64,000 bases of DNA, taken from assembly GCF_003334315.1 (NCBI RefSeq), contig NZ_QOWR01000001.1, one strand, 5' to 3'. Below the pieces are notes generated by a model. It was not told where the DNA came from. It searched no databases and saw only the letters and a program-made list of their open reading frames with translations. The position numbers were made by a program, and so were the translations under genes. Positions 48,358 to 48,389 of the stretch are shown one piece after another; position 1 is the stretch's first letter, and each line of letters begins with the position of its first letter. Source of the DNA: Escherichia coli (GTDB lineage: Bacteria > Pseudomonadota > Gammaproteobacteria > Enterobacterales > Enterobacteriaceae).

Positions 48358-48389
48358 TTGACTCTGGAGTCGACTCCAGAGTGTATCCT
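48358..48389 (+). promoter_or_regulatory. MerR-type (ZntR) promoter/operator of zntA
   Basis: TTGACT (48358-48363), 20-bp spacer containing perfect palindrome actctggagtcgactccagagt, then TATCCT (48384-48389); the long spacer is the MerR-family signature. Confidence 0.75.

Follow-up and report, generated by a model that had tools for sequence, protein, structure and literature searches.

What is the function of a long perfect palindrome that straddles two unusually distant promoter hexamers in the 73-bp intergenic gap between yhhN and zntA on the Escherichia coli chromosome? The site lies in a 64,000-nucleotide stretch of E. coli DNA (the window), whose genes run rtcB, glg, gnt, ugp, liv, rpoH, ftsYEX, yhhN, zntA, nik, and rhsB. 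The window is colinear with the genome of strain CP53 (99.9% identity, gap-free), and the 401 bp around the site were matched in all 5426 complete E. coli genomes, with the left flank annotated as yhhN and the right flank as zntA. Elsewhere in the window, two stretches of ~900 bp (38593-39492 and 40703-41602) that are 77.5% identical to one another are the paralogous binding-protein genes livK and livJ. The following features frame the site:

47725-48351, plus strand: yhhN coding sequence (from the open reading frame list; annotated as lysoplasmalogenase in a 99.9% identical genome)
48358-48363, plus strand: -35 hexamer TTGACT of the zntA promoter, PzntA (direct reading and script; PMC3431237 names the same hexamer)
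48361-48382, no strand: ZntR operator ACTCTGGAGTCGACTCCAGAGT, a 22-bp perfect palindrome that is its own reverse complement, centered at 48371/48372
48364-48383, plus strand: spacer CTGGAGTCGACTCCAGAGTG, 20 nt (counted by script)
48384-48389, plus strand: -10 hexamer TATCCT (direct reading and script)
48396-48397, plus strand: predicted transcription start, 7-8 nt past the -10 (from the usual sigma-70 geometry)
48415-48419, plus strand: Shine-Dalgarno sequence GGAGG of zntA (direct reading), 5 nt before the ATG at 48425
48425-50623, plus strand: zntA, encoding a Zn(II)/Cd(II)/Pb(II) P-type ATPase of 732 amino acids (NF033775; the RefSeq annotation agrees)

A sequence-only reading had proposed that this is a MerR-type promoter of zntA, with hexamers 20 bp apart and a perfect 22-bp palindrome within the spacer. 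The identity of the downstream gene was confirmed by RefSeq and by a full-length match of its product to NF033775 (residues 1-732; 1447.8 bits, compared to a cut-off of 1240). Direct reading and a script count agreed on 20 bp between TTGACT and TATCCT, as had been claimed; sigma-70 hexamers 19-20 bp apart, rather than 17 ± 1, mark a MerR-type promoter, as does a dyad-symmetric operator centered in the spacer, which PzntA also has. The palindrome is indeed 22 bp long and perfect, with two arms of 11 nt that are 100% complementary and separated by no gap. However, since it is longer than the 20-bp spacer, it cannot be contained in it: 19 of the 22 bp fall within the spacer, its first three bases (ACT) are also the last three of the -35, and it stops 1 nt short of the -10. 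Measured from its center, the -35 ends 8.5 bp away and the -10 begins 12.5 bp away. Read directly, the sequence at 48340-48430 is ...ctgtatctcTGAtaaaacTTGACTctggagtcgactccagagtgTATCCTtcggttaatgagaaaaaacttaaccGGAGGatgccATG.

With transcription predicted to begin at ~48396-48397, the operator center would fall near -24.5 and the leader would be 29 nt long. The supplements of two E. coli transcription start site studies listed no entry for zntA or b3469. A standard promoter scan, which considers only spacers of 16-18 nt, did not report PzntA because its 20-bp spacer exceeds that range. An extended -10 was rejected on reading the sequence, as TATCCT is preceded by GTG and not by TGN.

Could the hexamers and the palindrome coincide by chance and have no function? 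Hexamer pairs of similar quality are common by chance, and palindromes with arms of at least 11 nt arose in 5 of 200 simulated 64-kb windows (~2.5%). Among the perfect palindromes in the window, only ACTCTGGAGTCGACTCCAGAGT has arms longer than 7 nt, and 100 shuffles yielded zero matches to it, even when up to three mismatches were allowed. Conservation speaks against chance. Of the 5426 complete E. coli genomes, 5400 matched the 51 bp from 48350 to 48400 with at least 99% identity, whereas the surrounding 401 bp were merely 95-99% identical in 3831 of the 5426. When we scanned one genome per species for the exact palindrome, it was present in 105 species stretches, all from Enterobacteriaceae or Erwiniaceae and each with a single copy. 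At all 101 palindrome loci with enough flanking DNA, a zntA homologue lay downstream in the correct orientation; the other 4 of the 105 were left out of this count, as the site was at the edge of the available DNA. Given this near-invariance, the recurrence upstream of zntA, and an experimental literature on the promoter (PMC9189660, PMC1526738, PMC3431237), we give coincidence no credence.

The identity of the palindrome across orthologues follows from how the search was constructed; the TTG of the -35 and the -10 hexamer lay outside the search pattern. Comparison of 95 distinct orthologous promoters revealed that both the TTG and the spacer length of 20 bp were invariant (95/95 for each). 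The -10 was TATCCT in 48, TATGCT in 25, CATACT in 10, and another TANNNT sequence in 12. Its second-position A and sixth-position T were present in all 95, while positions 3-5 varied. Since these two bases are invariant at 20 bp and the middle is not, the pattern marks a working -10 held at a fixed distance. Strict conservation of the 20-bp spacing, as seen in these sequences, is consistent with activation that needs a long spacer. The zntA Shine-Dalgarno sequence was GGAGG, GGAG, or GGAA in all 95 orthologues. In 104 of the 105 species, the gene immediately upstream was a yhhN homologue in the same orientation, and the tight arrangement, with its stop codon usually 5-8 nt ahead of the -35, recurred in ~90 of 100 species examined.

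We asked where the cognate regulator is encoded. A tblastn search of the window with a ZntR query found no gene for a MerR-family regulator (best E = 0.2). In the colinear CP53 genome, zntR is annotated within yhdN-zntR-arfA, 167 kb from zntA and outside the window, and its product scored 247 bits with the ZntR equivalog model (cut-off, 143). Through CP53, a cognate MerR-family regulator is thus found to be encoded in the genome.

The published work on zntA bears directly on this site. ACTCTGGAGTCGACTCCAGAGT is identical to the ZntR consensus of Permina et al. (PMC1526738), which was the sole match in a full-text search for the operator sequence. For PzntA, Hobman et al. (2012) name TTGACT as the -35, describe ZntR as exceptional in having a 20-bp spacer, citing Brocklehurst 1999, and state that this promoter is protected against DNase I by ZntR (PMC3431237). 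In the work of Parisutham et al. (2022), ZntR and zinc were each titrated separately (PMC9189660). Without ZntR, basal activity of PzntA was low. At low zinc, ZntR repressed the promoter, with repression rising with ZntR copy number to a maximum of ~2-fold, while at high zinc expression was activated ~10-fold compared to a zntR knockout. Zinc left ZntR occupancy unchanged when the operator was at a steric-hindrance position, and when the operator was transferred to a promoter whose spacer was ideal, ZntR repressed and activation was lost (PMC9189660). The same paper quotes a PzntA spacer of 19 bp, compared to the 20 bp given by our sequence count and by PMC7911910, PMC1526738, and PMC3431237.

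Together, these reports (PMC1526738, PMC3431237, PMC9189660) and the exact conservation of spacing support the claim of a MerR-family, ZntR-type activation geometry at zntA. Because the published work matches it, the interpretation offered by the sequence-only reading is correct and is the published one. We therefore assign a probability of about 0.96 to the site being explained as PzntA, with ZntR-dependent, zinc-switched activation through distortion of the operator; no evidence that we found contradicts this. The geometry, the gene identities, a zntR gene in a near-identical genome, and the exact conservation of spacing come from our analysis; ZntR binding, the response to zinc, and the loss of activation in an ideal-spacer promoter come from the literature.

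A model for this activation is as follows. PzntA is the sigma-70 promoter driving the gene for the zinc/cadmium/lead efflux ATPase, zntA. With 20 bp between them, the -35 and -10 are too distant and out of phase for RNA polymerase, and hence basal activity is low. A dimer of ZntR, the MerR-family protein encoded 167 kb away, binds the 22-bp palindrome in the spacer and, when zinc is absent, represses slightly. With Zn(II) (or Cd or Pb), ZntR would change conformation, remain bound, and kink and underwind the operator, realigning the hexamers such that transcription would increase ~10-fold. In 1999, Outten et al. reportedly observed that ZntR binds within this spacer, whose 20 bp are atypical, and that zinc binding leads it to distort the DNA. 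The distortion mechanism has been reviewed from the solved complexes of CueR, EcmrR, and BmrR (PMC9909328). For ZntR, there is no structure with DNA or with RNA polymerase, and only the C-terminal metal-binding fragment has been solved (1Q08-1Q0A). Distortion of a 20-bp spacer is thus extrapolated from the CueR and BmrR complexes, and it is from the solved complexes of CueR, MerR, and BmrR that we infer a physical distortion of the DNA at PzntA.

A simpler role for ZntR would be that of a plain repressor, which blocks RNA polymerase and is merely released by zinc, with no activation by distortion. The position of the operator, overlapping the -35 and abutting the -10, would suit such a role, as would the repression, up to ~2-fold, that is seen when zinc is low and the ZntR copy number is high (PMC9189660). 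However, a repressor that zinc merely releases would not account for ~10-fold higher expression with ZntR and zinc than in the zntR knockout, for an occupancy that zinc does not alter, or for the loss of activation in the ideal-spacer promoter (PMC9189660). Moreover, a simple repressor site would not need the 20-bp spacing that is kept in 95 of 95 orthologues. We consider a plain repressor barely credible.

The palindrome might also act mainly as RNA, forming a hairpin that ends or stabilizes the yhhN transcript, either as an intrinsic terminator or as a protective 3′ stem-loop. Only 6 nt separate the yhhN stop codon from the -35, which leaves no space for a separate terminator, and the palindrome RNA folds into a 9-bp stem with a 4-nt loop. 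Although a terminator scan flagged the palindrome, it did so on the minus strand only, where the tail is CAAGTTTTAT. On the plus strand, from which yhhN is transcribed, the stem is followed by GUAUCCUUCGG, which contains no U-run, and the scan did not flag it. With no U-run there, and with only the minus-strand reading passing the scan, an intrinsic terminator for yhhN was rejected. In addition, a structural hairpin would allow compensatory changes, whereas this sequence equals the published ZntR consensus and is nearly invariant in E. coli, and a role in termination leaves the exact framing by the -35 and -10 unexplained. A primary function as an RNA hairpin is therefore very improbable. A search of Rfam 15 returned no family at its gathering score; two hairpin-like miRNA precursor families matched below threshold (20.4 and 15.5 bits, with gathering scores of 80 and 90) over 48363-48438. 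Separately, on the minus strand, the palindrome and CAAGTTTTAT might stop antisense transcription leaving zntA, and no minus-strand gene needs such a terminator.

The ZntR-activated promoter can be compared to well-described relatives. It does not differ from PzntA/ZntR of E. coli K-12 (Brocklehurst et al., 1999; Outten et al., 1999): the locus, the TTGACT, the 20-bp spacer, and the 22-bp operator are identical. PmerT/MerR of Tn21 and Tn501 resembles PzntA in having TTGACT as the -35 (PMC3431237) and a dyad in an over-long spacer, and MerR, like ZntR, remains bound as it changes from weak repressor to activator. However, the PmerT spacer is 19 bp with an interrupted 7-4-7 dyad, in contrast to the 20 bp and uninterrupted 11+11 dyad of PzntA (PMC7911910, PMC1526738). 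Moreover, merR is adjacent to and divergent from its target, while zntR is 167 kb away and lacks a ZntR site of its own (PMC1526738). PcopA/CueR of E. coli shares with PzntA/ZntR both an operator in the spacer and a regulator gene unlinked from the target, and CueR and ZntR belong to one regulator family (match E = 5e-22). PcopA differs in its reported spacer of 19 bp, compared to 20 bp in PzntA, and CueR senses monovalent metals. The CueR activation complex has been solved by cryo-EM (6LDI, 7C17, 6XH7, and 6XH8), whereas for ZntR the metal-binding fragment alone is available.

A second inverted repeat extends from the promoter into the zntA leader:

48383-48423, plus strand: second inverted repeat, 15 bp (inverted-repeat search, RNA folds, and comparative tests)

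Its 5′ arm (48383-48397, GUAUCCUUCGGUUAA) takes in the -10 hexamer, the single base that precedes it, and the discriminator. The complementary 3′ arm (48409-48423, UUAACCGGAGGAUGC) covers the Shine-Dalgarno region and ends 2 nt before the AUG. RNA that enters from upstream, as in read-through from yhhN (48352-48445), had a minimum free energy of -39 kcal/mol (z -7.7), and its fold contained the operator stem, the hairpin of 15 bp, and, within the first codons, a short stem of 5 bp. In contrast, RNA that begins at the predicted PzntA start (48396-48445) had a minimum free energy of -5.3 kcal/mol (z 0.16) and contained no significant structure.

To compare orthologues, we calculated the opening cost, which is the energy needed to free the start codon and its surroundings (positions -14 to +6), for 95 distinct orthologous regions. 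The median cost was 20.9 kcal/mol for the read-through RNA, 6.2 kcal/mol for RNA from the predicted start, and 9.6 kcal/mol for read-through RNA in which the upstream 38 nt were shuffled. For 89 of the 95 sequences, which are related such that the tests are not independent, no more than 5% of shuffles reached the observed cost. RNAalifold, run on a MAFFT alignment of the 95 promoters, returned the invariant palindrome stem alone, missing the second hairpin because indels break its register. We replaced this approach with an ungapped subset of 40 sequences and with energies calculated for each sequence. As evidence that the pairing is under selection, 89.9% of cells pair in the 40-sequence alignment, and sliding the partner by 1-3 columns lowers this to 29-56%; changes on both sides occur in just 2 of 18 pairs and are mainly U-A to G-C in one clade. 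By eye, Franconibacter and the lineage of locus L102 appear to carry matching indels in both arms, and the upper stem differs in Citrobacter. The stem is weaker in the group with TATGCT as the -10, at mostly ~-14 to -16 kcal/mol, with a few sequences reaching -27.6 and z-scores of mostly ~-1 to -2.

Since the yhhN stop codon usually lies 5-8 nt from the -35, there is no room for a terminator between the two. The predicted start and the folding energies raise the possibility, toward which we remain doubtful, that the zntA promoter has a second role as a translational insulator against read-through from yhhN. Transcripts reading through from yhhN would fold the 15-bp hairpin and bury the Shine-Dalgarno sequence of zntA, whereas ZntR-activated transcripts, predicted to begin at ~48396, would lack the 5′ arm and would be translatable. 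If only transcripts from its own promoter could be translated, ZntA synthesis would hinge on zinc even when yhhN is transcribed.

There is a precedent for this arrangement in the fold-back inhibition of IS10 and IS50. In these elements, transcripts that originate outside contain a stretch able to pair with the ribosome-binding site of the transposase gene, a stretch that is missing from transcripts begun at the gene's own promoter. The zntA read-through hairpin resembles this fold-back, with the differences that theirs acts on transposase genes and that zntA's is derived from a predicted start and from folds. A literature search found no paper on a zntA leader hairpin or on yhhN-zntA read-through; PMC10107115 was set aside, as it concerns zntR-arfA and not zntA. 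The zntA leader hairpin may be new and may bring about fold-back inhibition of read-through, and we present it as a side observation.

In Pantoea, Erwinia, and their relatives (six Erwiniaceae loci: L008, L019, L038, L047, L082, and L092), the exact ZntR operator and the 20-bp spacing are kept, and the leader between the -10 and the Shine-Dalgarno sequence is replaced by unrelated G+C-rich sequences. By eye, these leaders form hairpins that would lie mostly within the PzntA transcript, like a 5′-terminal stem-loop. The hairpin of L008 had an energy of -9.6 kcal/mol, and those of the other five loci ranged from -16 to -20 kcal/mol.

The leaders of most Enterobacteriaceae share a nearly invariant AT-rich core, TTAATGAGAAAATTATCATTAA (for example, L056:10462-10509), which carries the Fur-like hexamers GTTAAT GAGAAA ATTATC ATTAAC. 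The Escherichia leader (48393-48414) has a shorter core, TTAATGAGAAAAAACTTAA, that lacks ATTATC. As an alternative to an RNA hairpin, TTAATGAGAAAATTATCATTAA could be the operator of a protein: the leader loop is conserved beyond what a plain hairpin needs, making a protein site possible, and a Yersinia pestis study lists a Fur-like box for yhhN-zntA (PMC2231364). This transcriptome paper handles yhhN-zntA as one co-regulated unit (PMC2231364). On inspection, a canonical Fur box in the leader found no support, as the spacing of the half-sites differs from the 19-bp consensus and ATTATC is absent in Escherichia.

We also noted that codons 2-5 of zntA (48427-48438, GTCGACTCCTGA) nearly repeat the right half of the operator, GTCGACTCCAGA, and are thus complementary to its left half. 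After the ATG, 30 of 95 orthologues carry GTCGACTCCAGA, the exact half-site, and 58 of 95 carry ATGTCGAC. The conserved N-terminus M-S-T-P could produce this repeat by coincidence; alternatively, the repeat could serve as an auxiliary half-site or belong to a longer RNA pairing.

In conclusion, the site is the known ZntR-dependent promoter of E. coli zntA, which is very strongly conserved and fully described, and our finding adds nothing to what is known of PzntA/ZntR. This pair is a reference case for MerR-family activation through reshaping of promoter DNA and a standard part in whole-cell biosensors for zinc and cadmium. If the proposed role of the leader hairpin is true, the -10 region of this promoter would also silence the translation of read-through transcripts.
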